Part shown: in pieces, positions 1 to 14,444 of the stretch
How positions within the stretch are numbered: position 1 is the stretch's first letter
Layout of the letters: each line of letters starts with the position of its first letter
NCBI GenBank assembly: GCA_963555755.3
Contig: OY820905.2
Span: 3,904,001 to 3,968,000 of the forward strand
Direction: 5' to 3'
Source: Nitrospirales bacterium
Lineage (GTDB): Bacteria > Nitrospirota > Nitrospiria > Nitrospirales > UBA8639
DNA: 64,000 bases
Notes under the pieces: model-generated
The model's database searches: none
The model's input: only the letters and a program-made list of their open reading frames with translations
Told to the model about the DNA's origin: nothing
Made by a program: the position numbers and the translations under genes

Positions 1-1
1 T

Positions 2-559
2 GCGTCGGCATCGGTGCTGGCCATCTACCGAGACCCGCAAACTACCTCTAAAATACTTCGAGATCGGCTGCAGGCAGCCCTTACTCCTCTCATGCCGATC
101 ACCATCATTAGCAATCAGGAATTACGAGCTGAGATTCTCGAAATTTTTGATCGAACCTTCCGGGTCACGCATGGCTTGGAACTAATTGCGGTGCTCGTTG
201 GGCTATTGGGCATCGTCAATACCCTACTCACCGCAATCATCGAACGCCAACGAGAGTTCGCCACCTATCGCGCCATTGGAGCCGGGGTGCGGCAAATTCA
301 AGCCATGGTGTTGTGGGAATCACTAATTCTCGGCGCCATCGGCGCAATCCTAGGCTTACTGGCCGGCCTGCTCCTAGCCGCCCTGCTCATCTTCGTCATC
401 AACAAACAATCCTTCGGATGGACCATCCAATTCGTAGTTTCCTGGGGTACCTTAGTCGGCGCAGTAACGGTCGCCGGCATAGCCGCAATCGTAGCCGGTT
501 ACCTCCCAGCCCGTTGGGTCACCAAAGGCGTCATCGCCGAGGGGTTACGGTATGAGTGA
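2..559 (+). CDS. ABC transporter permease, FtsX/MacB-like, C-terminal part (5' truncated by window)
   Basis: Frame is open from the window edge. Hydrophobic TM segments, 'NTLLTAIIERQREFATYRAIGA' FtsX-type motif and C-terminal 'LPAR...LRYE'. Confidence 0.85.
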   Translation, partial: ASASVLAIYRDPQTTSKILRDRLQAALTPLMPITIISNQELRAEILEIFDRTFRVTHGLELIAVLVGLLGIVNTLLTAIIERQREFATYRAIGAGVRQIQAMVLWESLILGAIGAILGLLAGLLLAALLIFVINKQSFGWTIQFVVSWGTLVGAVTVAGIAAIVAGYLPARWVTKGVIAEGLRYE

Positions 560-597
560 TGGATAAAGAAATCTTGGTTTATTTGCCTTGTCCAATG

Positions 598-616
598 TGC
601 TAGCATCATGCCAGCA
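598..616. promoter_or_regulatory. Putative RHH-antitoxin operator
   Basis: TGCTAGCA (598-605) and TGCCAGCA (609-616) lie 11 bp apart just upstream of the antitoxin and resemble FitA-type half sites. Confidence 0.4.
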
Positions 617-651
617 TAAAACAATGAATCATTTAGCTAAGGAGCATAGCC

Positions 652-876
652 ATGAGCACCCTCACCATTAGAAAAATTCCAGAAGCCATTCTCGATCGGC
701 TCAAAGCAGTTGCCAGTCGGAAGGATCATTCCATGGAACAAGAAGTACGTGAATTGCTTAAAAAAAAGTATGCCACTACTCCCGAGATAGCCTCACGGAT
801 TCAGAAGCGGTGGAAAGAATTACCCAAGACCACCCCTGCGAAAATAAAAACATGGCGCCAAGTCGGTCGTCCCTAA
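652..876 (+). CDS. FitA/Arc-like ribbon-helix-helix antitoxin
   Basis: 74 aa, 'MSTLTIRKIPEAILDRLKAVA...SMEQEVRELL' RHH pattern. AAGGAG RBS; lies directly upstream of a PIN toxin. Confidence 0.85.
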   Translation: MSTLTIRKIPEAILDRLKAVASRKDHSMEQEVRELLKKKYATTPEIASRIQKRWKELPKTTPAKIKTWRQVGRP

Positions 877-889
877 AGAGGTCTACCTG

Positions 890-1303
890 GTGGTTGTAGA
901 TACCATGGTCTTTGCCTACGCGCTCCTTGGAGTCTCACGTTTTCGTGACGAATCCCTCTCGGTATTAACCAATGTTGAAGATATCCTGGTTCCCGATAGC
1001 TTCCGAGCCGAACTCGTGAATGTGGTATGGCAATGGACGCGCGAAAACCAATTGACCCTTGAGGTTGGCATGAATGTGCTGGCAGATGCGGATGCCCTAA
1101 TCACCCATGCGGCTCCTGCGGACGAGTTGTGGGAACGTGCGCTTGAGTTGTCTGTGGCCGCGAATCATCCAGCCTATGACACCCTGTTCGTAGCACTAGC
1201 CGAGAGAGAAGGGACCGGCCTCATTACCTACGACACAAAATTGCGCAAAAAGTTTCAGGATCAGACTATCTCGCCCTCGGACTTTCTTGCCAATCTGTCT
1301 TGA
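890..1303 (+). CDS. vapC: PIN-domain VapC/FitB-type toxin
   Basis: 'VVDT' N-terminus, conserved E, 'AYDTLFVALA' and 'LITYD' acidic PIN motifs. Confidence 0.9.
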   Translation: MVVDTMVFAYALLGVSRFRDESLSVLTNVEDILVPDSFRAELVNVVWQWTRENQLTLEVGMNVLADADALITHAAPADELWERALELSVAANHPAYDTLFVALAEREGTGLITYDTKLRKKFQDQTISPSDFLANLS

Positions 1304-1334
1304 TAGAAATTGTTCAAAATCCATATGAAATAAC

Positions 1335-1460
1335 GTCATTTCTCCGAGCACCCTCATTGGAGCAGTCACCGTAGCAGGCGTCGCCGCAATCGCCGCCGCC
1401 TACCTCCCAGCCCGCTGGGTCACCAAAGGCGTCATCGCCGAGGGTTTGCGGTATGAATGA
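1335..1460 (+). pseudogene. Diverged second copy of the ABC permease 3' end
   Basis: Translates VISPSTLIGAVTVAGVAAIAAAYLPARWVTKGVIAEGLRYE*, 34/41 aa identical to 434-559, with many synonymous changes. Confidence 0.92.
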
Positions 1461-1576
1461 TAGGCAGGTGACGAGTTTATTTGCACCTAGCATTTGTTTA
1501 TACTCTTCCTCATGAAGTTAGTTGCCATTTATTAAAATCACATCAGCTGGATTCAATTTCATTTCTATCTGACATC

Positions 1577-4378
1577 ATGACCACACCGGAAGACCAAGCC
1601 CGCGAAACTATTGACAAACTCTTGGAACAAGCAGGGTGGAGCGTTCAGGATGCCAAGCAAGTCAACTTGAGTGAAGCGCAGGGAGTAGCGATTAGAAACT
1701 TCTCTTTGGAGCACGGGCATGGCTTTGCGGATTACCTCCTTTATGTAAATGGGAAAGCTGCAGGAGTCGTCGAAGCCAAAAAAGAGGGCCATACGCTCAC
1801 AGGCGTAGAAATTCAGAGCGGGAAGTATAGAGACGGCTTGCCAGTGCACTTGCCAGCGCATACCCGCCCCTTGCCATTTCTCTATCAAAGCACTGGGATC
1901 GAAACCCGCTTTACCAACGAACTTGATCCGGAACCGCGAAGCCGTCTCACCTTTGCCTTTCATAAACCAAAAACCCTGGCGGACTGGCTAGCCGAAGCAA
2001 ACATTCCACAAGCCGAACCAAAACCAACCCAACTGGCCGCAGAGCACCGCGAGACTTATAAAACCTACTCCACCGTTCGAAAACGCCTCCAGCAATTACC
2101 AACGCTTATTGAAGAAGGCCTCTGGCCCGCGCAAAAGATTGCCATCAAAAATCTGGAACAGTCGCTGGCCCAAGACCGCCCCCGTGCCCTCATTCAAATG
2201 GCCACCGGCAGCGGCAAGACTTTCACTGCCATTACCGCCATCTATCGCCTCATCAAATTCGCCGGAGCCCGGCGCGTCTTATTCTTGGTGGATCGGGGCA
2301 ACCTGGGCGACCAAACCCTCAAAGAATTCCAGCAGTATGTCTCGCCGTATAACAACTTTAAATTCACCGAAGAATTCATCGTCCAGCGACTCAGCAGCAA
2401 CACGCTCGACACCACCGCACGGGTGTGCATCAGCACCATCCAACGCATGTACTCCATGCTCAAGGGCAAAGAACTCTCGGATGAAGACGACGAAGCGTCC
2501 ATTGGTGGCCTGGAAAATCTTTTCAAACAACCGGAACCTCTTGAATACAACCCGGCCATCCCCATCGAAACCTTCGACGTCATCATCACCGACGAATGTC
2601 ACCGCTCCATCTATAATCTCTGGGCACAAGTGCTCGAATACTTCGATGCCTACCTCATCGGCCTCACTGCCACACCCAGCAAGCAAACCTTTGGCTTCTT
2701 CCACCAAAACCTGGTCATGGAATATCCCCACGAGCAGGCCGTGGCCGATGGCGTCAACGTCAACTACGACGTGTATCGCATCCGCACCGCCATCTCCCAA
2801 GCCGGCTCAAAAGTGGACGCAGGACTCTTTGTGGAAAAGCGCGAACGAGAAACCCGAAAAACACGGTGGGAACAACTCGAAGACGACTTCGCCTACGACC
2901 CCAACCAACTCGATCGCGACGTCGTCGCCCCGGACCAAATCCGCACCATCGTCAAAACCTTCCGGGACAAACTGTTCACCGAGATCTTCCCAGGCCGCAC
3001 CGAAGTACCCAAAACACTCATTTTCGCCAAAGACGATGCCCACGCCGAAAACATCGTCGAAATCCTGCGAGAAGAATTCGCCAAGGGCAACGACTTCGCC
3101 CAAAAGATCACCTATCGCACCACCGGGGCCAATCCCAAGGACCTCATCAAGTCGTTCCGAAACAGCTATCACCCGCGCATCGCCGTTACCGTGGATATGA
3201 TCGCTACCGGCACCGACATCAAACCCGTGGAAATCGTCGTCTTCATGCGGGCCGTCAAATCCCGCTCGTTCTTTGAACAAATGAAAGGGCGCGGCGTGCG
3301 CGTCATCAAGGCAGACGACCTAAAAGCCGTCACCCCGGATGCCACCACCAAAGATCACTTCGTCATCGTGGATGCGGTGGGCGTCTGTGAGCAGGATAAA
3401 ACCGACGCCCGCCCCATGGAGAAAAAACCCAGCGTCTCCTTTGAAAAACTGCTGCAAGCGGTCTCTCTGGGCAACACCGAAGAAGACGTCCTCACCACCA
3501 TCGCAGGACGCCTAGCCCGCATGGAACACCGCCTCACCAAAGAAGACGAACAAACCATTGTGAAGGCCAGTGGAGGGTTAAACCTCAAAGACCTCAGCCA
3601 CCGCCTCTTGGAAGCCGTCGATCCCGATAAACTCGACACTACTTCCCTAGACGAAAAAGGTGCCGATGCCCTACGAGCCAAACTCATCCAAGACGCCGTC
3701 AAACCCTTTCACGATCCCAAACTACGGGAACTCCTCGTCGACATCAAAAAGAAAAACGAAATCACCATCGACCACGTCAGCCAAGATCAAATCATCGAAG
3801 CAGGGTTCAGTGCCGAAGCCCTTGACCGAGCCAAAGGCATCGTCCACTCCTTCGAACAATTCATACAAGACCACAAAGACGAAATCACCGCCCTTCAGGT
3901 GCTGTACAGTAAACCCTACAAGGCAAGACTCACCTTCGAGCACATCAAGGAACTCGCCGCAGCCATCGAAAGGCCACCCTATCTCTGGAACGAATCACAA
4001 CTCTGGCAAGCCTATGCTGCGCTGGAGGAGTCGAAGGTCAAAGGGACCAGTGCCAAGCGTATTCTCACGGATTTGGTTTCCTTGGTTCGGTTCGCCATCC
4101 ATCAGGACAATGAACTGATTCCCTTCCCCGAGAAAGTCCAGGTCAACTTCAAGGCATGGATGACCCAGCAAGAAGCATCAGGAAAAACATTCACCGAGGA
4201 GCAGGGACATTGGCTAGAAATGATCCGCGACCACATCGCTGCCAATCTGAGCATCGACACAGAAGATTTTGACTATGCACCGTTCGCTCAGGAAGGTGGA
4301 TTAGGGAAAGTGCATCAAGTATTTGGAGAAAAGCTGAATGGGATCATTGAAAAATTGAATGGGGCATTAGCGGCATGA
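1577..4378 (+). CDS. hsdR: Type I restriction enzyme R subunit (EcoEI/EcoAI-like)
   Basis: 'ADYLLY...VVEAKK' nuclease, 'MATGSGKT', 'DECHRS', 'TATP', 'FEQMKGRGVR'. Start placed at ATG 1577 (MTTPEDQAR). Confidence 0.95.
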   Translation: MTTPEDQARETIDKLLEQAGWSVQDAKQVNLSEAQGVAIRNFSLEHGHGFADYLLYVNGKAAGVVEAKKEGHTLTGVEIQSGKYRDGLPVHLPAHTRPLPFLYQSTGIETRFTNELDPEPRSRLTFAFHKPKTLADWLAEANIPQAEPKPTQLAAEHRETYKTYSTVRKRLQQLPTLIEEGLWPAQKIAIKNLEQSLAQDRPRALIQMATGSGKTFTAITAIYRLIKFAGARRVLFLVDRGNLGDQTLKEFQQYVSPYNNFKFTEEFIVQRLSSNTLDTTARVCISTIQRMYSMLKGKELSDEDDEASIGGLENLFKQPEPLEYNPAIPIETFDVIITDECHRSIYNLWAQVLEYFDAYLIGLTATPSKQTFGFFHQNLVMEYPHEQAVADGVNVNYDVYRIRTAISQAGSKVDAGLFVEKRERETRKTRWEQLEDDFAYDPNQLDRDVVAPDQIRTIVKTFRDKLFTEIFPGRTEVPKTLIFAKDDAHAENIVEILREEFAKGNDFAQKITYRTTGANPKDLIKSFRNSYHPRIAVTVDMIATGTDIKPVEIVVFMRAVKSRSFFEQMKGRGVRVIKADDLKAVTPDATTKDHFVIVDAVGVCEQDKTDARPMEKKPSVSFEKLLQAVSLGNTEEDVLTTIAGRLARMEHRLTKEDEQTIVKASGGLNLKDLSHRLLEAVDPDKLDTTSLDEKGADALRAKLIQDAVKPFHDPKLRELLVDIKKKNEITIDHVSQDQIIEAGFSAEALDRAKGIVHSFEQFIQDHKDEITALQVLYSKPYKARLTFEHIKELAAAIERPPYLWNESQLWQAYAALEESKVKGTSAKRILTDLVSLVRFAIHQDNELIPFPEKVQVNFKAWMTQQEASGKTFTEEQGHWLEMIRDHIAANLSIDTEDFDYAPFAQEGGLGKVHQVFGEKLNGIIEKLNGALAA

Positions 4379-5844
4379 GCATAACCAAGGCACAGGTAAG
4401 CGCTGATCTGAGCTTAAGGTTTGAGACACAAAAAATCGAGGATGTTGCGGACGTCAATCCACGCATAGACAAGTCGGCGATTCCAGAGGATCTGCTAGTT
4501 TCGTTTGTTCCCATGCCCGCCGTTGGCCCAGGCGATGGGACTATTAATGTTCAAGAGACACGGCCGGCCGGAGAAGTGAAGAAAGGCTTTACTTCTTTCC
4601 TAGAAAGGGACGTGCTGTTTGCCAAGATTACGCCCTGCATGGAAAACGGAAAGATGGCTGTTGTACCGAGACTCATAAACGATTACGGCTTTGGTTCAAC
4701 TGAATTCCATGTCCTTCGCCCACAACCAGGAATGGATGCCAAGTATCTTTATTATTACGTGTCTAGTAGGAACTTTCGCTCGGAAGCCGAACGGTATATG
4801 ACCGGAGCAGTTGGGCAAAGGAGGGTCCCAACAACTTATCTTAAGGAATCCAAGATTCCAGTAGCACCACCCGAACAACAAAAATGTATCGTTGCGGAAA
4901 TCGAAAAACAATTCTCCCGCCTCGACGAAGCCGTCGCTAACCTCAAACGGGTCAAGGCCAACCTCAAACGCTACAAAGCCGCCGTCCTCAAAGCCGCCGT
5001 CGAAGGCAAACTCACCGAAGCCTGGCGAAAAGCCCACCCCGACGTCGAACCCGCAAGTAAACTCCTCGAACGCATCCGCACCGAACGCAGAGCGAAGTGG
5101 GAAAAGACCGAAATCAACAAAATGGAAATAAAAGGCCAGGTGGCTATCAGTGATCAATGGAAGAATCGCTATAAGGCACCTTTAAAGTTAGATGAGGACG
5201 TGATTGCCAACATTCCACCAACGTGGGAGGAGGTCTCCCTTGATTCCATATCTAGCTTGATTACTGATGGCAAACACGGCGATTGTAACGACGAGACTGG
5301 GTCAGGGTATTACTTTCTTAGCGCAAAGGATGTTCATGACGGTAAGCTACACTACTCAAAAGCCAGGCAAATCAACAAAGATGAGTTCATGGAGGTTCAC
5401 TACAGAACAAACCTTGAATTAGATGACGTTTTAATTACAAATGCAGGAACAATAGGACGCGTCGCAATAGCTAAAGATAAACAAAAGCTGCCATTTACGA
5501 CTTTTCAAAAAAGTGTCGCAATAATCAAGCCCATTAAGACATTTGTGTCTTCGGGTTTTCTTGCATATCACCTCGAAGCGAATGTGAACAAAATGCAAGC
5601 GAAGTCTGCAGGTACTGCTGTGAAGAACTTGTTGCTAAGCACACTTAAGGCTACCCCCTTTTGCCTCCCCCCCCATGACGAGCAATTACAAATAGTGGAG
5701 GATGTTGAGCGCCGATTATCCATCATCGAGGAATTCGAAGCCACCGTCGAAGCCAACCTCACCCGCGCCGAGCGGCTGCGACAGTCAATCCTTAGCCGAG
5801 CATTTACCGGTCAGTTGATTGTGCAAGCTTTGGTGTCGCGATGA
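4375..5844 (+). CDS. hsdS: Type I R-M specificity subunit
   Basis: Two target-recognition domains (TRDs), each followed by conserved 'PP.EQ..IV..IE' helices. ATGA overlap with hsdR. Confidence 0.95.
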   Translation: MSITKAQVSADLSLRFETQKIEDVADVNPRIDKSAIPEDLLVSFVPMPAVGPGDGTINVQETRPAGEVKKGFTSFLERDVLFAKITPCMENGKMAVVPRLINDYGFGSTEFHVLRPQPGMDAKYLYYYVSSRNFRSEAERYMTGAVGQRRVPTTYLKESKIPVAPPEQQKCIVAEIEKQFSRLDEAVANLKRVKANLKRYKAAVLKAAVEGKLTEAWRKAHPDVEPASKLLERIRTERRAKWEKTEINKMEIKGQVAISDQWKNRYKAPLKLDEDVIANIPPTWEEVSLDSISSLITDGKHGDCNDETGSGYYFLSAKDVHDGKLHYSKARQINKDEFMEVHYRTNLELDDVLITNAGTIGRVAIAKDKQKLPFTTFQKSVAIIKPIKTFVSSGFLAYHLEANVNKMQAKSAGTAVKNLLLSTLKATPFCLPPHDEQLQIVEDVERRLSIIEEFEATVEANLTRAERLRQSILSRAFTGQLIVQALVSR

Positions 5845-6743
5845 GCACGTGGGAAGACTTATTTCGGTCATGGGCTCAAGGACCTGGAAAGACGGAAAGC
5901 GATAAATGCGAGAATGCCGAAGTGGCAGTGCGAAAAGCAATTAATGCTGACAGGGCACTTTCAAAATTGGACGTTAGCGTGTTTGCACAAGGTTCATACA
6001 AGTCCAGAACGAACGTGAAACAAGATAGCGACGTGGATATTTGTATTCGTTATAACGAAGCGTTTTTCCCAGAATATCCCGATGGGAGATCTAGTGATGA
6101 CTTTGGGAACGTTGATTCTGGCTTAAAGTTTTTCGATTTCAAAGAAATCGTTGAAAAGGCCCTTAAATCCTATTTTGGGTCATCGGCAGTTAGGCGGGGC
6201 AATAAGGCATTTGACATCCATGCCAACACATATCGTATCGATGCAGATGTTGTCCCGACCTACGAGTATAGGTGTTACACAGGTGGATTGGATAGGGATG
6301 GGAACCACGATTATCTTTCAGGTGTGGCGTTTCTTACTGATGAAGGCAAGAAGATTATCAACTGGCCTCAACAGACCTTCGATAATGGAGTGGAACGGAA
6401 TACTGAAACAGGGAGGCGGTACAAGCGCGTCATTAGAATTCTTAAGCGGCTCCGAAACGCCATGCAAGAGGACGGGATATCAGAATCTGAGAATGTGGCT
6501 TCATTTCTCATAGAATCCATTGTATGGAATGCACCAGTAGAGGACTTCCAGCATGACACATATACCGCCGATGTACAGAATGTAATCGCGGATATTTTTA
6601 ATCGAACCCTCACTGAAAAGGAGTGCTCCGAATGGGGTGAGGTGAACGAACTCAAGTATCTCTTTCGAGCATCTCAGCCTTGGACAAGAGAACAGGCCAA
6701 CCAGTTTCTTGACGCAGCCTGGCACTATATAGGATTCGAATGA
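5841..6743 (+). CDS. cdnE: CBASS CD-NTase, CdnE-like cyclic dinucleotide synthase
   Basis: 300 aa, 'QGSYKSRTNVKQDSDVDI' (GS...DxD), 'DADVVP', 'IINWPQQ', 'YKRVIRILKRLRN', 'SFLIESIVWN'. Confidence 0.9.
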   Translation: MSTWEDLFRSWAQGPGKTESDKCENAEVAVRKAINADRALSKLDVSVFAQGSYKSRTNVKQDSDVDICIRYNEAFFPEYPDGRSSDDFGNVDSGLKFFDFKEIVEKALKSYFGSSAVRRGNKAFDIHANTYRIDADVVPTYEYRCYTGGLDRDGNHDYLSGVAFLTDEGKKIINWPQQTFDNGVERNTETGRRYKRVIRILKRLRNAMQEDGISESENVASFLIESIVWNAPVEDFQHDTYTADVQNVIADIFNRTLTEKECSEWGEVNELKYLFRASQPWTREQANQFLDAAWHYIGFE

Positions 6744-7396
6744 AAAACCTTCACCTGAAGCGATTTGCCCTGGTTCTGTTTGGTGTATTCGCTATTAGCT
6801 TCATATGTGTTGCACTCCAAAGTGGAAAGACTGTCCAAGATCTATGGAGTGCACTCGCTATCGCTTACAAGACAATCCCCATACTTTTGGTAGCGTTAGG
6901 AGTATTTATCAATTGGGCGTGGCGTTGGAAAATCTTCTGCGGCTGGCTGGTTCCATTTCCAGACCTTAACGGTACATGGCAAGGTACGATTCAGACTACA
7001 TGGAAAAACCCAGAGACTGGAGAAGTCCCTGGCCCCATACCTGTCATCCTTACAATTAAGCAGTCCTTCACTCGAATCAGTTGTGTCATGCGCACAGCCG
7101 AAATGACCAGTCGCAGTTATCTGGCTGATTTTTGGTTGGATGGAGATGAGCAAATACGAAAACTCGGCTACAGTTACCACAGTAAACCATTGCCCTCGGT
7201 GGCAGATCGTAGTCAGCCACACGATGGAACCATAGTGTTTGAAATAGTTGGAACTCCCGTAGAAAAGCTGAAAGGGGTTTATTGGACCGAAAGAAAGTCC
7301 AAAGGCGAAGTTACCCTTCGTTTCAGGGAAAAGCATTTGCTAGAAGAATTCCCAAAGAATCTCGGTATTCATCCCGTGGCAGGAAAGCGGCAATGA
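6740..7396 (+). CDS. cap15: CBASS Cap15-like 2TM + beta-barrel membrane effector
   Basis: Two N-terminal TM helices, then 'PDLNGTWQGTIQTTW' and a beta-rich domain ending 'LKGVYWTERKSKGEV'. ATGA-coupled to the CD-NTase. Confidence 0.85.
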   Translation: MKNLHLKRFALVLFGVFAISFICVALQSGKTVQDLWSALAIAYKTIPILLVALGVFINWAWRWKIFCGWLVPFPDLNGTWQGTIQTTWKNPETGEVPGPIPVILTIKQSFTRISCVMRTAEMTSRSYLADFWLDGDEQIRKLGYSYHSKPLPSVADRSQPHDGTIVFEIVGTPVEKLKGVYWTERKSKGEVTLRFREKHLLEEFPKNLGIHPVAGKRQ

Positions 7397-7512
7397 ATAA
7401 CAGTTCCTCTACAGCATCAACCCAAATCGTCCAAAAACTCTGGAACTACTGTAATGTCCTCCGCGACGACGGGATGAGCTACGACATTCAATGTAAAGAT
7501 TTCAGCCAATAA
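7393..7512 (+). pseudogene. Truncated duplicate of the hsdM 5' end
   Basis: MNNSSSTASTQIVQKLWNYCNVLRDDGMSY then diverges. 7423-7481 matches 9225-9283 at 56/59 nt, and the 3 differences are synonymous. Confidence 0.92.
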
Positions 7513-7519
7513 TTGGACC

Positions 7520-8164
7520 ATGACCCCAATTCCTACCTCGATACTTCGTTTTACGCACGTGGATAACCTGGCCACAATCATCCAGCGAGGTGGACTTCAT
7601 GCACCAAACCTCGTGCCCGATGATGGATTGAATTATCGCTTCTGTCACAGTGCCGAAGTTCAGGGAGCCCGTGCTGAGGTACCTATTCATCTAGGACCGG
7701 GTGGGACCATTCATGACTATGTGCCGTTCTATTTCGGGTATCTGTCGCCCATGATGTTAAACCTGAGGACCGGCCGCGTGGAAGGTTATACCGAAGGACA
7801 GGAACCTCTGATCTATCTCGTCGCCTCGGCTCAAGCTATTGAAGCGGCTGGCATCAGGTTTGTGTTTTCAGATGGGCATGGCCTTGCTATTTTCACTGAA
7901 TGGTTTGATGATTTTGCCAAATTAGATGCTATTGATTGGACGTTGGTGTATGAGCGATATTGGTCGGACAATATTAATGATATGGATCGCCAGCGAAAGA
8001 AACAGGCTGAATTTCTTGTGCATCAGTTTTGTCCTTGGTCGATAATCCATGAAATTGTAGTGATCGATTCGGCCATGCAGCAGCGCGTGGAGACGATTCA
8101 GGCAGCCTTCCCTGCAGATCAAAGAAAGGTAGTCAGGATTGATCCAAATTGGTACTATTGGTGA
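7520..8164 (+). CDS. darT: DarT DNA ADP-ribosyltransferase toxin (DUF4433)
   Basis: 'FTHVDNL..I...GL', 'DYVPFYF..LSPM', 'FSDG', 'KQAEFLV' with the catalytic Glu. Confidence 0.93.
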   Translation: MTPIPTSILRFTHVDNLATIIQRGGLHAPNLVPDDGLNYRFCHSAEVQGARAEVPIHLGPGGTIHDYVPFYFGYLSPMMLNLRTGRVEGYTEGQEPLIYLVASAQAIEAAGIRFVFSDGHGLAIFTEWFDDFAKLDAIDWTLVYERYWSDNINDMDRQRKKQAEFLVHQFCPWSIIHEIVVIDSAMQQRVETIQAAFPADQRKVVRIDPNWYYW

Positions 8165-8172
8165 CCTAACTT

Positions 8173-9213
8173 ATGATTAGAAACGCGACAGGTAATCTCC
8201 TTCAGGTTGACGCCGAAGCCCTGGTTAATACCGTCAACTGTGATGGTTTCATGGGCAAGGGCATTGCTCTGCAATTCAAGCAAGCCTGGCCCGAGAACTT
8301 CGAGGCCTATGCCCGTGCATGTCGTGGGAAAGAAGTCCGACCTGGAGAGATGTTTATCTGGGAAACCGGACGCATGATGAACCCGAAGTACATCATCAAC
8401 TTCCCAACTAAACGACACTGGCGAGGTAAATCTCGAATGGAAGACATCCGCAGCGGGCTGCACGCCTTGGTTGCAGACATGCGTCGCTTGGGAATTCACT
8501 CAATCGCTGTCCCGCCGTTAGGATGTGGTAACGGTGGACTTGATTGGCAAGAGGTTCGTCCCCTCATTGAATCCGCGTTTGCCGAAGTACCCGACGTGGC
8601 TGTTCAGTTGTTCGGCCCCCTTGGCGCACCTGATGCGAAGACCATGCCGGTGAACACGAAAAAACCTTCGATGACTATCAGTCGCGCCTTGTTCGTCAAG
8701 GTCATGCACCAATATGAAACCTTGAGTTATCGCCTTACATTATTAGAGGTTCAAAAACTGGGATACTTTCTCCAAGAAGCTGGGGAACCTCTTAGATTGA
8801 GATTTCAGGCAGGATTGTACGGACCCTATGCCGCGAATTTGAATAAAGTGTTGGAACGAATCGAAGGACATTTTATTCGTGGTTACGGTGATACCCAAAA
8901 ACCGGATACCGACATTGAACTGCTTCCCGGTGCGATTGAAGAAGCCAACAAGTTTCTTAGCGAGCACCCGATACCCATCTCACGGTTGAACCGAGTGGGC
9001 GATCTTATCCAAGGGTTTGAGACACCATATGGTATGGAGTTACTGTCCTCAGTCCATTGGGTTTCCACGTATGGCAAGCCGAAGGCCACTACCTTGGAGA
9101 TGGCCGTAGAGTCCATTCATTCGTGGAATGAGAGAAAGCAGAAGATGTTCCGCCCTGAACATATTCACATTGCCTATCAGCGCCTCCATGAGCTTTCTTG
9201 GATAGCCAAGTGA
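8173..9213 (+). CDS. darG: DarG macrodomain antitoxin
   Basis: 'GNLL...AEALVNTVNC.G.MGKGIALQFK', 'IINFPTKRHW', 'PPLGCGNGGL', plus C-terminal 'LEVQKL.YFLQ...YGPYA'. Confidence 0.95.
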   Translation: MIRNATGNLLQVDAEALVNTVNCDGFMGKGIALQFKQAWPENFEAYARACRGKEVRPGEMFIWETGRMMNPKYIINFPTKRHWRGKSRMEDIRSGLHALVADMRRLGIHSIAVPPLGCGNGGLDWQEVRPLIESAFAEVPDVAVQLFGPLGAPDAKTMPVNTKKPSMTISRALFVKVMHQYETLSYRLTLLEVQKLGYFLQEAGEPLRLRFQAGLYGPYAANLNKVLERIEGHFIRGYGDTQKPDTDIELLPGAIEEANKFLSEHPIPISRLNRVGDLIQGFETPYGMELLSSVHWVSTYGKPKATTLEMAVESIHSWNERKQKMFRPEHIHIAYQRLHELSWIAK

Positions 9214-10715
9214 GTTCTTCAAATCAAATCGTCCAAAAACTCTGGAATTACTGTAACGTCCTGCGCGACGACGGGATGAGCTATGGCGACTATGTCGAGC
9301 AGTTGACGTATTTGCTGTTTCTCAAAATGGCCGATGAGCGGACGAAGCCGCCCTATTCTCAGCCTAGCGAAATACCAAGCAAATACAGTTGGCCCAGTCT
9401 CTTGAAAAAGGATGGTGACGAGCTCTTCGACCACTACCGCCATCTCCTTGAAGAGCTAGGGAAAGAAAAGGGCCTTCTCGGACTGATCTTCACCAAGGCC
9501 CAGAACAAGTTTCAGGACCCGGCCAAGCTACGGCGATTGATCGTCGATTTGATCGATAAGGAAAATTGGTCGGTGATGAGTGCCGATGTGAAAGGTGATG
9601 CCTATGAAGGGCTCCTAGAGAAGAATGCGCAGGATACCAAGACCGGCGCCGGGCAGTACTTCACCCCGCGTCCACTGATCCAAGCTATTGTCGATGTAAT
9701 TCAACCCAAGCCTGGCGAAACACTTTGTGACCCTGCTTGCGGGACAGGTGGCTTTCTTTTGGCGGCTCACGATTACCTTGTGAAGCAAAATCCGAATCTC
9801 ACGAAGGATCAAAAGAAGCAACTGAAGGAAAGCACGCTCAGGGGATGTGAGCTGGTCCAGGGCGTGGCCCGATTGTGTGCCATGAATTTGCTCCTCCACG
9901 GTATCGGGAGTCAGGATTATGAGCCGATTGTCGTATCGGATTCATTAGCCGCTGATCCTGGCGATCGGTATGACATTGTCTTGACCAATCCACCGTTTGG
10001 GAAAAAGAGCAGCACCACGATTGTAGGAGAAGAAGGGAAAGTCTCAAAGGAACGGGACATTGTTGAGCGGGATGATTTTTGGGCGAGCACTTCCAATAAA
10101 CAGCTCAACTTTATCCAGCATGTAAAGACCCTGCTGAAACAACACGGCCGAGCGGCCGTGGTCGTGCCGGATAACGTCCTCTTCGAAGGCGGCGCAGGAG
10201 AGACGATCCGGCGGAAGCTTTTGCATGAGTGTGATGTGCACAGCCTACTCCGTCTACCCACCGGTTTGTTTTATGCCCAAGGTGTGAAAGCCAACGTGTT
10301 GTTTTTCGATAAACGACCTGGCGGGGAATCGGCATCCACCCAAAAACTGTGGATCTACGACCTGCGCACGAATAAACATTTTACCTTGAAGACCGGCCCG
10401 TTAAAACGTGAAGACCTGGATGAGTTTGTAAAATGTTACAATCCGGCCAATCGGCATACTCGCAAACCGACCTGGTCAGAGAAGAACCCCGAAGGCCGCT
10501 GGCGGTCTTACGACTATGACGAATTAGTCGCCCGCGACAAAGCCAGCCTTGATCTCTTCTGGCTCAAAGACGACTCTCTCGAAGACTCTGCTAATTTGCC
10601 CGATCCCGATGTGATCGCCCAAGAAATCGTCGACGACCTCGAAGCCGCACTTGAACAGTTTCGCGAAATCGCCAATGACTTAGGTGACGAAACAGAAATA
10701 CCGAAAGTTACCTGA
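9210..10715 (+). CDS. hsdM: Type I R-M N6-adenine methyltransferase subunit
   Basis: 'GQYFTPR', 'DPACGTGGFL', 'NPPFG'. GTG start at 9210 overlaps the darG TGA. Confidence 0.96.
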   Translation: MSSSNQIVQKLWNYCNVLRDDGMSYGDYVEQLTYLLFLKMADERTKPPYSQPSEIPSKYSWPSLLKKDGDELFDHYRHLLEELGKEKGLLGLIFTKAQNKFQDPAKLRRLIVDLIDKENWSVMSADVKGDAYEGLLEKNAQDTKTGAGQYFTPRPLIQAIVDVIQPKPGETLCDPACGTGGFLLAAHDYLVKQNPNLTKDQKKQLKESTLRGCELVQGVARLCAMNLLLHGIGSQDYEPIVVSDSLAADPGDRYDIVLTNPPFGKKSSTTIVGEEGKVSKERDIVERDDFWASTSNKQLNFIQHVKTLLKQHGRAAVVVPDNVLFEGGAGETIRRKLLHECDVHSLLRLPTGLFYAQGVKANVLFFDKRPGGESASTQKLWIYDLRTNKHFTLKTGPLKREDLDEFVKCYNPANRHTRKPTWSEKNPEGRWRSYDYDELVARDKASLDLFWLKDDSLEDSANLPDPDVIAQEIVDDLEAALEQFREIANDLGDETEIPKVT

Positions 10716-10810
10716 TCTTTTATCCAAACCCGGAGTCTCCTATGGGCACAGATCTCCTCAGGAAACACATTCAAGAATATGTTTAACACGCTTAAAGCAG
10801 GAGAAACGAT

Positions 10811-11023
10811 ATGGCCCAAAAAGTAAAAATTTGGTTTGATCCTGAAGGAGATTTTCTGGAAGTCCAGTTCAAGGATGCCCCTGGTTTCATGCGTCCGACT
10901 GCCCACGATGCTGTCATGGAACGTGTCGATGAGCAGGGCCGCGTGCTTGGATTTAGCGTACAGGGTGTGAGCCGTTTTCGAAAAGACCATCCTCTAGAAG
11001 CCGAACTTGTCGCAGGAGAATAA
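10811..11023 (+). CDS. DUF2283-like small protein (putative antitoxin)
   Basis: 70 aa, 'KIWFDPEGDFLEV...VDEQGRVLGFSV' pattern; GGAG RBS. Confidence 0.75.
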   Translation: MAQKVKIWFDPEGDFLEVQFKDAPGFMRPTAHDAVMERVDEQGRVLGFSVQGVSRFRKDHPLEAELVAGE

Positions 11024-11068
11024 TCCTCCTTCTTTTTCCTCTTTGACAAGGTTTTCTCTTCAGCCCCG

Positions 11069-11100
11069 CTTGACTCATAACTTGACTTACACTTGACTTA
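11069..11100 (+). promoter_or_regulatory. Three direct CTTGACT repeats upstream of the Fic gene
   Basis: CTTGACT at 11069, 11081 and 11092 (12 and 11 bp period). Confidence 0.5.
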
Positions 11101-11127
11101 TTCGAAGGCCCCTACTAACCTAAGGGG

Positions 11128-12132
11128 ATGCCATTTCAGCCCACATTCACTATCACCCCACGTTTACTGACCCTTATCGAGGAAATCTCCGCATTCCGGG
11201 AGAAGATTCTCTCGGCCACGATTCAGGTTCCTTGGATTCCGACCCTCCAAAAGGATGCGCGGGTTCGAAACACCCACAGTTCTACGGCCATCGAGGGTAA
11301 TCCTCTCACGCTTGAACAAGTCCGCCTGTTAGAAGAGGGGCAGTCTCTTCCCACTGAGCCCCAACGTGCGACACGTGAGGTGCTCAACTATTTCTCTGGT
11401 CTGCGCTTCATTGAAAAACTTCCACCAGATAAGCCCACCGCCCATAAAGAAATTTTTTCACTCCATTCCCTTGTGGCGTCAGATGTGATGGATCAGGGGA
11501 AAGCCGGCCGGTATCGTGATATTCATGTGCAGGTCGGTCGCTATGTGCCACCCCCGCCTGAGATTGTATCTGGTTTAATGGCTGAACTGTTGGATTGGTG
11601 GAATAAAAACTTCTCACCGTGGTCTCCTGTGATCTCGTCGGCAATCATTCATTATCAGTTTGAGGATATCCATCCCTTTGCAGATGGTAATGGTCGTACT
11701 GGCCGGCTTCTAGCACTTTGGGAATTATATCGCCGTGGTTTCGACACCCACCATATCTTTTCCGTAGATGATTATTTTTGGAAGGATCGAGACCGGTATT
11801 ACACATCCCTGGCTGCCGTCAGAAAAGAGGGCGGCGATTTAACCAGTTGGCTTGAATATACAGCCGAGGCCATTCATGTCTCATTAGAACAAGTTTGGGA
11901 TCGGATTCAACATCTTTCTGCTGGCACGGGAAAGAAAAAATTTGTGTTGCGACCCAAGCAGGAACAGCTCCTCCGACTTCTCCGTGATCGACAAAGTCTT
12001 ACCCCACAGGAAATCCGTGAGGGAATTGGTGTGTCCAAACAAGGTGCGATGGATTTATTGAATCCACTCCTAGAGGCAGGCTTGGTTCAACGGGTGGGAA
12101 CAAGAAAGTCAGGACGATATATTTTGTCTTGA
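11128..12132 (+). CDS. Fic family protein with C-terminal winged HTH
   Basis: Canonical HPFADGNGRTGR, N-terminal inhibitory 'STAIEGN', C-terminal wHTH-like region. Confidence 0.92.
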   Translation: MPFQPTFTITPRLLTLIEEISAFREKILSATIQVPWIPTLQKDARVRNTHSSTAIEGNPLTLEQVRLLEEGQSLPTEPQRATREVLNYFSGLRFIEKLPPDKPTAHKEIFSLHSLVASDVMDQGKAGRYRDIHVQVGRYVPPPPEIVSGLMAELLDWWNKNFSPWSPVISSAIIHYQFEDIHPFADGNGRTGRLLALWELYRRGFDTHHIFSVDDYFWKDRDRYYTSLAAVRKEGGDLTSWLEYTAEAIHVSLEQVWDRIQHLSAGTGKKKFVLRPKQEQLLRLLRDRQSLTPQEIREGIGVSKQGAMDLLNPLLEAGLVQRVGTRKSGRYILS

Positions 12133-12204
12133 AGAGGGTCACCCCTAAAAACCAAATCCAAAATCTCCTCCCCTTCTTAAATTTCACAGACTAAAGCTGG
12201 GAAG

Positions 12205-12481
12205 TTAAGCTGGAGCCGGAGAATTCACCTGAACCTCAAATCCCATGTCTTGGATCATTTGTTGGACTTCGTTGGCCGGGGCTCCCGGGGTGGTGAGGTA
12301 GCCGTTGACGAATAGGGAGTCAGCGACGTACAGCGCCAGGGGTTGGAGAGAGCGTAGGTTGAATTCACGTCCTCCTGCTGCGCGGAGTTCTCGTTTGGGG
12401 TGGAAGAATCGGACCATGCTCATGATCTTCAGGCAGCGTTTTGGCGTTAAATGGTTCGAGTCTACCAAGGGTGTCCCGGAT
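12205..12481 (-). pseudogene. Diverged second copy of the bioB 3' end
   Basis: About 91 open codons (SGTPLVDSNHLTPKRCLK...FEVQVNSPAPA*) homologous to 13452-13731, with about 9 aa differences and many synonymous changes. Confidence 0.95.
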
Positions 12482-12538
12482 AGGGGTAGTCCTTTTCAGG
12501 GGTTTTCCGTTTGATCCAACCGGTGTACAATTGAGTTC

Positions 12539-12724
12539 ATGTCTACAGAACAGTCGTCATCCCCTACCCGTCCCACTCGTCGCCCCAGTCCTTTGAGTGA
12601 ACGTTTGACTCAGGAGAAACTCGAAGAGGCTCGGGCCTTGTCTCCCACACAGCGTTTACTCCTTGCCCTTCAACTCTCTGATACTTGCCTTGAGTTACAG
12701 CGCTCGTGTTCGACCAAGCATTAA
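12539..12724 (+). CDS. Small putative antitoxin (MenA1-like position)
   Basis: 61 aa helical protein ('LSPTQRLLLALQL') overlapping the downstream NTase. Confidence 0.6.
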   Translation: MSTEQSSSPTRPTRRPSPLSERLTQEKLEEARALSPTQRLLLALQLSDTCLELQRSCSTKH

Positions 12725-13251
12725 CAACTATCACTCGCCGTTTGGATGAGGCTAAAGCTCAAGGCTTTTTAAAAGACTATGCTTTGATTGGTGGATTTGC
12801 CGTTTCTGCCTGGGGCATCCCTCGCGCCACGCAGGATGTGGACTTTGCATTGGTCTTAGGCTCAGCCGACCCAGAGGGCTTATCGCGCCATCTCGATTCG
12901 GAGTTTTTGCCTGGAGATGGGGACGATCCTTTGCGAGGTGTCTTTCAGCTCAAACTTTCTATTGAGGATCAGAGAGTTCCCGTTCAGCTAATCTTGCTTC
13001 CCCCTCGGTGGACCTCCATTATAATCGATGGCATTGTGACCCTGTCAGTGTTGGGCTGCAGTGTTCCGGTTATCTCCTGGGAAGGGCTTATCCTCCTGAA
13101 GTTGTATGCCGGGGGCCCTCAAGACCTTCTTGATGCTCAACACATTTTTGCCGTCCGAAAACCCACGGTAAACGAGATCGAGAAACTGTCTAAGTTGGCG
13201 GTTCAGGTTGATCTGTTGGGTGCTTTTCGTGATCTTGTTAATCGACTCTAA
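12706..13251 (+). CDS. Nucleotidyltransferase toxin, MenT1/AbiEii-like
   Basis: 'YALIGGFAVSAWGIPRATQDVD' and 'LILLKLYAGGPQDLLD' motifs. Confidence 0.8.
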   Translation: MFDQALTTITRRLDEAKAQGFLKDYALIGGFAVSAWGIPRATQDVDFALVLGSADPEGLSRHLDSEFLPGDGDDPLRGVFQLKLSIEDQRVPVQLILLPPRWTSIIIDGIVTLSVLGCSVPVISWEGLILLKLYAGGPQDLLDAQHIFAVRKPTVNEIEKLSKLAVQVDLLGAFRDLVNRL

Positions 13252-13338
13252 TCGTCTACTTTTCAACATTTCTCATCGACCAAAGAACGATGAAAGATTT
13301 GGCCTATCTATAGTGTTTTAACTTTTGGAGAAGAGAAC

Positions 13339-13373
13339 CCCTCACCCCAACCCTCTCCCCACAGGGGCGAGGG
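13339..13373. repeat. REP-like hairpin, family H (CCCTCTCCC..GGG type)
   Basis: ccctcaccccaaccctctccccacaggggcgaggg. Related copies near 32411, 37272, 39000, 39095, 51455-51600, 54672-54762, 55163-55293 and 60158-60277. Confidence 0.7.
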
Positions 13374-13451
13374 AAAATTGAGGTCTCCCAGTTGAAAGTC
13401 AAAAAACTATCAAAAGGCAAATTCCAACGATGGACTGCTTTGGCCCGGAAG

Positions 13452-14444
13452 TTAGGCTGGGCAAGCAGGCGAATTTACCTGAACCTCGAAACCCATGTCT
13501 TCAATCATTTGTTGGACTTCGTTGGCGGGTTGGCCGGGGGTGGTGAGGTAGCCGTTGACGAAAAGGGAGTCTGCGACATAGAGGGCTAAGGGTTGAAGGG
13601 AGCGTAGGTTAAATTCACGTCCTCCGGCTGCGCGTAGTTCCCGTTTGGGGTGGATGAAGCGGAACATGCACATGATTTTCAGACAGCGTTGCGGTGTTAA
13701 ATGGTTGGAGTTTTCTAATGGTGTCCCGGATGCGGGGTGGAGCATATTGAGTGGAATGGAATCCGGATTAAGTTCGCGCAGGGAAAACGCTAAATCCACG
13801 AGGTCTTCGTCTTGTTCACCCATGCCCACGATACCACCCGAACAGAGCTCAAGCCCTGCGGCTCTGGCGTTGTTTAACGTGGTCACCCGATCTTGAAAGG
13901 TATGTGTGGTGCAAATAGACGCGTGGTATGCTTCGCTGGTGTTCAGGTTGTGATTGATTCGATCAACCCCTGCGGCTTTGAGTCGCTTGGCTTGTGGCTC
14001 GGTGAGTAGGCCGAGGGAGCAGCATACTTGAATGGGCAACTCGTCTTTTATTTGGCGAACAGCTTTGGAGATTTCCTCGATTTCCCGATCTAGCGGGCTT
14101 CTTCCGCTAATCACGACACAGTAGCGTTGGGCTTTGGCCTCGACAGCGCGTCTGGCGGCTTTGAGCATTTGTTCGGGCTCGACGAGGGCATAGCGATCAA
14201 TCGGTGCTGTGGAAATTGACGATTGCGAGCAGTAATGGCAATCTTCCTGGCAGGCCCCGCTCTTTGCATTGAACAGCATTTGTAAAGTCACCATGTTGCC
14301 GAAATGCCGGTGGCGGATTCGGTACGCGGCGTTGATCAACCCCAGCAATTCCTCATCCGGGGTTTGGAGCAGGGACAGGCTTTCCTCGCGTGTAATTTCT
14401 TCATCCCGCAACACGTTGTCGGCAAGCTGGGTATAGGGTGTCAT
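13452..14444 (-). CDS. bioB: Biotin synthase
   Basis: Radical SAM 'CQEDCHYCSQS', 'NHNLNTS', 'CSGGIVGMGE', 'GYLTT'. Confidence 0.97.
   Translation of the reverse strand: MTPYTQLADNVLRDEEITREESLSLLQTPDEELLGLINAAYRIRHRHFGNMVTLQMLFNAKSGACQEDCHYCSQSSISTAPIDRYALVEPEQMLKAARRAVEAKAQRYCVVISGRSPLDREIEEISKAVRQIKDELPIQVCCSLGLLTEPQAKRLKAAGVDRINHNLNTSEAYHASICTTHTFQDRVTTLNNARAAGLELCSGGIVGMGEQDEDLVDLAFSLRELNPDSIPLNMLHPASGTPLENSNHLTPQRCLKIMCMFRFIHPKRELRAAGGREFNLRSLQPLALYVADSLFVNGYLTTPGQPANEVQQMIEDMGFEVQVNSPACPA

Follow-up and report, generated by a model that had tools for sequence, protein, structure and literature searches.

A block of eight plus-strand reading frames was analysed in a 64,000-nucleotide (nt) window from a Nitrospirales bacterium (G000:C1:3904001-3968000; genome of 4.62 Mb in two contigs). 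The frames, in the order hsdR, hsdS, cdn, cap15, an hsdM stub, darT, darG and hsdM, abut or overlap one another. In the reading that we regard as probable, the locus is a type I restriction-modification (R-M) operon that carries, in a cargo slot upstream of hsdM, both a CdnE-Cap15 cyclic oligonucleotide-based antiphage signaling system (CBASS) and a DarTG toxin-antitoxin pair, with the three systems predicted to act independently and likely from one transcript. The evidence for how the cargo was stacked comes from the hsdM stub and from a metagenome contig, L103, in which the CBASS genes run directly into hsdM. On this reading, embedding means that the systems are inherited, transferred and expressed together; it does not tie them to one another at the molecular level.

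Composition of the operon

The features of the block are listed in Table 1. Four of the junctions share the sequence ATGA, namely hsdR/hsdS (4375-4378), hsdS/cdn (5841-5844), cdn/cap15 (6740-6743) and cap15/stub (7393-7396), and darG and hsdM share GTGA (9210-9213). Overlaps of 4 nt are found at five of the seven internal junctions, and the gaps at the other two measure 7 nt (stub to darT) and 8 nt (darT to darG), the latter being the largest in the block. These values were read directly from the junction sequences and agree with an earlier note on this DNA, which had described the same five overlaps and had placed the remaining gaps below 10 nt. Its view of a type I R-M system, a two-gene CBASS and DarTG as one co-oriented block without intergenic room for promoters likewise stands, and the gene identities that it proposed hold in PADLOC, with Pfam in agreement.

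Table 1. Features of the block in window coordinates, with the matches on which their assignment is based.
Feature	Position	Strand	Evidence
Untranslated leader, left edge of variable block	1462..1576	+	Putative place of the operon promoter
hsdR, type I restriction subunit, 933 aa	1577..4378	+	Pfam EcoEI_R_C 1.7e-41, ResIII 7.6e-39, HSDR_N, Helicase_C; PADLOC REase_I 1.4e-48
hsdS, specificity subunit, 489 aa	4375..5844	+	Pfam Methylase_S, 2 stretches; PADLOC Specificity_I 1.2e-131, residues 19-485
cdn, CD-NTase, CdnE group, 300 aa	5841..6743	+	PADLOC cyclase PDLC00801 6.6e-126, residues 1-300 on profile 2-295
cap15, Cap15 effector, 218 aa, two N-terminal hydrophobic helices and a cyclic-dinucleotide receptor domain	6740..7396	+	Pfam Cap15_CD_rec PF18153 8.7e-20, residues 72-194; PADLOC 2TM effector 8.2e-82
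hsdM 5' stub, open 39-codon frame	7393..7512	+	PADLOC MTase_I 3.6e-8; conserved block 7417-7481; putative recombination break 7481/7482
darT, ssDNA thymidine ADP-ribosyltransferase toxin, 214 aa	7520..8164	+	Pfam DarT PF14487 1e-55; PADLOC DarT 1.1e-63
darG, macrodomain antitoxin, 346 aa	8173..9213	+	PADLOC DarG 2.1e-134, residues 1-340; Pfam Macro 1.1e-26
hsdM, methyltransferase subunit, 501 aa from GTG 9210	9210..10715	+	Pfam N6_Mtase 9.3e-69, HsdM_N 6e-14; PADLOC MTase_I 1.6e-202

All seven full-length genes are open and retain those catalytic motifs that were checked, and Pfam families, PADLOC profiles and solved structures match them over their whole length or almost so. The chosen gene starts are supported because the profile matches begin at residues 1-4; hsdM could also start from an in-frame TTG at 9198 instead of the GTG at 9210.

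The restriction subunit combines a nuclease N-terminus (HSDR_N) with an SF2 motor (ResIII and Helicase_C) and an EcoEI_R_C region, and its translation displays the motifs GSGKT and DECH. HsdS has two target-recognition regions, with two Methylase_S stretches. HsdM joins an HsdM_N domain to an N6_Mtase domain with an NPPF motif (LTNPPFGKK in the translation). As judged from these genes, the R-M system would cut unmethylated DNA.

The cyclase matches solved CdnE structures (7x4f at 5.7e-74, and also 7x4a, 7x4c, 6e0m and 6e0k), of which the nearest chains, 7x4f and 7x4a, are labelled cyclic dipyrimidine nucleotide synthase and ClCdnE. As expected for a CD-NTase fold with its catalytic residues, the translation contains QGSYKSRTNVKQDSDVDIC and IDADVVP, which we take to be the catalytic GS...DxD...D motif. 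The adjacent effector, Cap15, supplies the nucleotide-receptor domain expected in a CBASS; comparison with solved chains gave no sequence relative for it. No Cap2/Cap3 or HORMA/TRIP13 accessory gene was matched with Pfam or PADLOC among the eight frames of 1577-10715, as befits a type I CBASS. By analogy with related systems, CdnE would make a cyclic dinucleotide upon infection, and Cap15, lying in the membrane, would then open.

DarT matches the Thermus enzyme 7omv over its full length (2.7e-43). In the segment kkqaEflv the query has a glutamate where the crystallised 7omv mutant chain has an alanine, and this residue is presumably the catalytic glutamate. DarG, encoded directly after darT, has two domains: the N-terminal macrodomain matches 5m3i (3.6e-51), and the C-terminal, DarT-binding part matches 7yk3_B (1.5e-19). 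By analogy, DarT would ADP-ribosylate DNA once control by DarG fails.

The hsdM stub and the stacking of the cargo

The short frame between cap15 and darT, which the earlier note had called an hsdM fragment, is genuine. In addition to its profile match, it contains a 65-nt direct repeat of the hsdM start, in which 7417-7481 is 92% (60/65) identical to 9219-9283. Its origin is suggested by L103, where the order is hsdS-cdn-cap15-hsdM. The cap15 gene of that contig is the closest relative of the one in the window (88% amino acid identity; 69% for the cyclase), it shares an ATGA with hsdM, and hsdM continues for at least 97 residues. Identity between the window and L103 is 51/63 at the 3' end of cap15, 16/24 over stub codons 1-8 and 59/65 in the 65-nt block, and it then falls to 14/38 after 7481. 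Past the break L103 has the same hsdM sequence as the window has after 9283. Because the window is collinear with the L103 cap15-hsdM junction up to 7481, the stub appears to be the old hsdM start of a CBASS-bearing operon. The window leaves the L103-type form after hsdM codon 30, and there follow darT-darG and a second, complete hsdM overlapping darG. The order hsdR-hsdS-cdn-cap15-hsdM without darTG is also found in L021, L105 and L107, the first of which is from a Pseudomonadota metagenome-assembled genome (MAG) whose HsdR and HsdM are 75% and 78% identical, respectively, to those of the window. In L104 the break differs and lies a few bases further on.

From these comparisons we infer that darT-darG arrived by recombination, together with its own hsdM start, into a CBASS-bearing operon of the order hsdR-hsdS-hsdM (R-S-M). 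One crossover would have fallen where the conserved hsdM 5' block ends on its 3' side, and the old 5' end would have been left as the open 39-codon stub. A related arrangement is seen in G366, where the order is hsdR-hsdS-ORF380-HerA-like-stub-darT-darG-hsdM; the stub break lies within ∼2 nt of that in the window, and the first cargo is different. Either stub-darT-darG-hsdM may travel as one module, for which the stub and hsdM would provide the homology arms, or it may be the cargo upstream that is exchanged.

Stubs of this kind recur. With a 50-residue hsdM N-terminal query, matches were found in 74 of the 301 genomes of the order, and 28 of these 74 have two or more copies of the hsdM start on one contig and strand within 3.5 kb, the weaker copy always being upstream. 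In G502, G570 and G334, two to three stubs are arrayed between cassettes; the first of these genomes has five hsdM N-terminal matches, with three stub positions before the full hsdM. The stub frames are open and abut their neighbors in the window, G366, G025 and G013, and are broken in G021 and G224. Their break points vary across loci (after MSY, MSYG, GDY(F), codon 18 or codon 47), and no recombinase gene was found with Pfam or PADLOC in or next to the block. Since the break points differ and no recombinase gene is present, ordinary or homology-facilitated recombination at the conserved block is the likely route. Integron-like site-specific insertion was considered as a candidate and rejected on the same two grounds.

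Comparison of 11 homologous R-M operons revealed many different cargo sets between hsdS and hsdM. The window hsdR and hsdM are nearest, over their whole length, to those of G021 and G013 (∼85% nt identity), in which the slot holds ORF230, a stub, DUF433, DUF6883 and DUF4926. Given such similar backbones with different cargo, the cargo turns over faster than the backbone diverges. Elsewhere the slot is occupied by darTG, a stub and then DUF6883/DUF4926 (G025), a broken GmrSD gene (G005), DUF4258 with an MqsA-like gene (G037), or an AlbA_2/HATPase_c_4 protein (G024). It holds ORF380, a HerA-like ATPase gene, a stub and then darTG in G366; an Mrr_cat-like ORF304 followed by darTG and stubs in G192 and G502; and DUF2283, Fic, AlbA_2 and DUF6883-DUF4926 cassettes with stubs between them in G570 and G334. 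In G017 it is empty. GmrSD cargo is also present among relatives in L016, L023, L024 and L096. Of the five closest DarG relatives with wide flanks, four lie in or beside a full type I R-M system; in the fifth, G224, darTG sits between an hsdS fragment and an hsdM stub.

Expression and independence of the three systems

Because the genes overlap, intergenic space is lacking and Shine-Dalgarno matches are weak or absent, we infer that the block is co-transcribed and that translation is coupled by termination-reinitiation. Transcription would begin ahead of hsdR, and a ribosome that finishes one gene would move on to the next, with the stub frame as the link from cap15 to darT. The Shine-Dalgarno comparison (0-5 matching bases for the internal genes and 0-5 for flanking genes) is weakly supportive of coupling. 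A scan of 500-12500 gave 11 promoter-like and 14 terminator-like sites, as against 11.6 and 13.7 in shuffled sequences. No plus-strand promoter-like site was called in the leader, 1462-1576, and there was no Rfam match at the gathering threshold in 1-14000. The RNA runs X8, X17, X18 and X19 were compared with 1300-11200, and exact contigs came from X8 only. These contigs cover 3288-3422, 8184-8551, 9327-9493, 9882-10250 and 10397-10884, which are parts of hsdR, darG and hsdM. The DNA runs X1-X7 hold 98-100% of the words and may be source samples.

The company kept by the cyclase was examined in 42 genome loci with cyclase relatives. In six of these, hsdS or a remnant of it lies just upstream: directly in L021, L022, L024 and L029, with one Abi_C gene between in L023, and as a frameshifted hsdS in L049. 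At the other 36 loci, no type I R-M gene is found beside the cassette within up to two neighboring frames on each side, and the neighbors are a LexA-like S24 gene with DUF2188, type II, IIG or III R-M genes, or unrelated genes. In a tree of 41 loci and the window (the short L062 match was left out), the window groups with L021, L022, L023, L024 and L049 in a six-member clade with support of 100/99, and L029 falls outside. Both R-S-M and M-S-R operons are represented in the clade, and its MAGs carry the labels of three phyla. Among 80 metagenome cyclase loci, 53 have a testable upstream frame on the same strand, the other 27 being too short or lacking such a frame. The upstream frame is HsdS in 7 of the 53 (L103, L105, L107, L124, L126, L129 and L130, of which L129 and L130 look like one sequence), and in L104, among the 27, an hsdS 3' end was found with tblastn. 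No cyclase relative in a plasmid collection exceeds 48.5% identity, and the two plasmid loci inspected (Vibrio and Bacillus) are defence-rich and not embedded in type I R-M. The association of the cyclase with hsdS is thus strong in the clade of the window and weak outside it.

As a separate observation, many cdn-cap15 pairs outside R-M operons, largely in MAGs of the candidate phyla radiation, are preceded by a LexA-like Peptidase_S24 gene, a DUF2188 gene or both (L031, L034, L035, L038, L040, L041, L043, L047 and L059; L116, L117, L131, L132, L137, L141, L155 and others). Peptidase_S24 and DUF2188 are possibly a regulator pair for this CBASS group.

Several points weigh against a stacked operon of independent systems read from one transcript. 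The mismatch-free metatranscriptome contigs bridge no internal junction and leave cdn, cap15 and darT uncovered, and DNA carry-over is possible in them. Plus-strand promoter-like sites lie inside coding sequence at 6487-6516, 6553-6581 and 8149-8177, at a rate that is not above that of shuffled sequence. The order of events is not fixed, since the G366 module would also fit the opposite sequence, with cdn-cap15 entering by exchange ahead of a stub that was already there. Sliding identity revealed no clear mosaic break inside hsdM or hsdR from a darTG insertion, G021 and G013 being closest throughout. All six members of the cyclase clade lie just downstream of hsdS or its remnant, which is more persistent than a purely promiscuous slot predicts. 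Finally, independent action of the three systems is a prediction from their relatives.

The internal promoter-like sites would fit a block that forms several transcription units, with promoters inside upstream coding sequence driving cdn-cap15, darTG or hsdM separately and with the tight spacing produced by compaction after insertion. Transcription of classical type I loci is driven from more than one promoter, and the closest backbones, G021 and G013, have gaps of ∼200-265 nt before hsdM that could hold one. The count of such sites, however, does not exceed the shuffled expectation, stop and start codons overlap at five junctions, and four other loci (L093, L094, L015 and L100) show darG and hsdM overlapping in the same way. 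We therefore consider separate units unlikely.

The earlier note had also suggested that the cargo serves as a layered or guard defence against phage anti-restriction proteins. In its explicit form, the restriction complex would keep one or both cargo systems silent, and a phage anti-restriction protein that disables the complex would fire them, as with PrrC in EcoprrI (PMC12707154; bioRxiv 10.1101/2024.01.29.577857; here and below, papers are cited for the parts of their text that were available). PrrC is functionally linked with the restriction complex, and its trigger is the T4 Stp peptide (PMC12707154). Like EcoprrI, the window has an abortive effector gene inside a type I R-M operon, and the position of the cyclase in its clade, with two operon orders and three phyla labels, together with the further hsdS-cdn-cap15 loci in metagenomes (7/53 and L104), would be in keeping with such a role. 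Unlike the case of PrrC, a functional tie to the restriction complex is unlikely in the window. Backbones of ∼85% nt identity carry wholly different cargo in the same slot. Outside the clade most cyclase relatives have no type I R-M neighbor, and many have the S24 and DUF2188 genes upstream. In addition, CdnE03-Cap15 from a Staphylococcus schleiferi locus flanked by type I R-M genes works alone and senses a phage RNA (PMC10686824), and DarTG2 and the R-M system of enteropathogenic Escherichia coli (EPEC) were tested together as one island, with no mutual dependence mentioned in the available text (PMC12255303). The guard role is thus unsupported as stated. A survey of homologous hsdS-hsdM slots, which the note had put forward as a check, bears out the recurrent embedding of DarTG; it does not bear out a purpose-built guard, which is quite unlikely because same-slot cargo differs widely on the same backbone and most cyclase relatives lie outside R-M operons.

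A bolder version, which we hold to be very improbable, is that this CdnE-Cap15 lineage is confined to type I R-M operons after hsdS and that the cyclase reads the state of the restriction complex, for example a DNA-mimic anti-restriction protein on HsdM-HsdS, as a guard in the style of PrrC. The conserved hsdM 5' block would also be a docking site that makes these operons recombinase-free cassette arrays, with stub frames handing on ribosomes between cassettes. If so, the clade would have jumped between unrelated R-M architectures while keeping its place after hsdS.

That the locus is instead decaying, its R-M system crippled by the insertions (e.g. through poor HsdM supply) and the block heading for loss, is scarcely credible: damage is seen in relatives (hsdR is frameshifted in G013 and G005, the GmrSD gene is broken in G005, and G224 has only hsdS and hsdM fragments around darTG) and same-genus G002 has no operon at the same site, but the seven full-length genes of the window are open, with full or nearly full profile matches and the checked catalytic motifs kept.

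Known embedded systems and neighboring observations

The embedding of defence genes in operons of the type I R-M, BREX, DISARM and Hma systems has been described under the term 'guilt by embedding' (Payne, Hughes, Fineran, Jackson, bioRxiv 10.1101/2024.01.29.577857); with these four kinds of host system pooled, the embedded genes were co-oriented in 96.7% of cases. As in those cases, the cargo of the window lies between host defence genes on the same strand and consists of known defence systems; co-regulation and back-up roles are discussed there. In contrast to them, the window stacks two different abortive systems in one slot. That survey kept only systems without pseudogenes (for Hma, each gene once), and gene-end stubs would therefore have been missed. 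The word 'recombination' does not occur in the main text of the preprint, the supplements of which may list CBASS or DarTG as type I R-M cargo.

The presence of DarTG inside type I R-M operons, noted earlier for this DNA as an established association, is confirmed by the EPEC RRDM island and by the closest DarG relatives. The island encodes RptR, an M48 peptidase and a type I R-M system whose hsdS and hsdR enclose DarTG2; it defends against phage and has an active upstream promoter (PMC12255303). As in the window, DarTG is enclosed by type I R-M genes. In EPEC these follow the order M-S-DarTG-R behind a dedicated repressor gene, whereas the window has R-S-cargo-M with the added CBASS pair, and no RptR-like gene was seen in the block.

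The type I-B CBASS CdnE03-Cap15 of S. schleiferi is an operon flanked by type I R-M genes and defends when cloned on its own (PMC10686824). In the available text it was studied alone, with its relation to the R-M genes left unexplored, and the product of the window cyclase may differ, its nearest structures being 7x4f and 7x4a. TgvAB, a GmrSD-like system inside the type I R-M cluster of Vibrio cholerae VPI-2, is a second, autonomous defence system (PMC11411939). The likeness lies in an autonomous defence embedded in a type I R-M cluster, and GmrSD cargo is also carried by relatives of the window; TgvAB is a type IV restriction system and not abortive, whereas the window cargo is abortive. A literature search for hsdM stubs or hsd gene ends as cassette insertion scars found no paper describing them, and one for CBASS with hsdS or Cap15 found CBASS beside type I R-M mentioned only in a legend of the S. 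schleiferi paper, among the text available (PMC10686824).

The locus is a good but ordinary, well-preserved example of a known phenomenon, defence genes nested in type I R-M operons, and it adds a clear instance of two abortive systems stacked in one restriction operon. New here are the L103 and window pair as a before-and-after comparison, the recurrent hsdM 5' stubs and the six-member clade of hsdS-adjacent cyclases. The comparison with L103 is the most useful product, being direct evidence of how cassettes stack at the hsdM start. The frequency of the stubs suggests that there is a general way, independent of recombinases, for defence cassettes to build up in R-M operons and to travel with them. 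The hsd gene-end stubs can also be used as landmarks to delimit unknown cargo, such as ORF230 in G021 and G013 or the pair of ORF380 and a HerA-like gene in G366, and the block itself is a compact natural construct for asking whether embedded systems interact or are merely co-expressed.

ORF230 is a conserved 230-residue protein encoded directly after hsdS in G021 and G013 (L013:4799-5491, minus strand; L014:5756-6451, plus strand). It has no Pfam or PADLOC match and is a candidate for unknown defence cargo. Where the window has cdn-cap15, G366 has a 380-residue frame without a family match (L093:10235-11377, minus strand) and a 320-residue HerA/mad8-like ATPase (L093:9119-10081, minus strand).

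Several relatives have a further cargo slot, between hsdR and hsdS. Toxin-antitoxin pairs (ParE/Unstab_antitox or MazF/DUF2281) occupy it in L016, L017, L094 and L100 and a GIY-YIG gene in L102, and a copy of the hsdR end is found there in L105. Cargo in this slot is each time followed by a copy of the last 30-90 hsdR codons. In L021, hsdM fragments at 12249-12329 and 13689-13901 lie downstream of the full hsdM, between a NERD gene and two Fic genes, and stub-bounded cassettes can thus extend beyond the end of the operon. The DUF2283 gene that follows hsdM in the window (10811-11023) has relatives of 78-84% amino acid identity in L014, L100, L101 and L102 (G013, G502, G570 and G334), where they sit in the cargo slot, upstream of hsdM or an hsdM stub.

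The block is set in a stretch rich in toxin-antitoxin genes between a gene for an FtsX-like permease and bioB, and is followed by DUF2283 and a SoFic-like gene. Homology to G002, of the same genus, covers window positions 1-1300 and 1392-1461 and resumes at 10792-12132. Between these flanks G002 has 2.3 kb in place of the 9.3-kb block, encoding an SNF2 fragment, DUF4258, DUF2283 and a helix-turn-helix gene. Since G002 keeps the flanks and not the block, the block is variable within the genus. Homology to other R-M backbones begins at 1575-1577.

Direct repeats are found on both sides of the block. Upstream, a 128-nt repeat (80%) links 433-560 with 1334-1461: the FtsX-like permease gene (2-559) has its 3' end duplicated behind a vapB-PIN pair (652-1303), such that a toxin-antitoxin cassette is flanked on both sides by the end of a core gene. 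The scar is of the type seen in the hsdM stub. Downstream, a 273-nt repeat (85%) links 12214-12486 with 13464-13736. Here a copy of the bioB 3' end, a BATS-domain fragment frame at 12205-12468 on the minus strand, brackets a small cassette made up of a 61-residue frame and a weak AbiEii-like nucleotidyltransferase match at 12706-13251.

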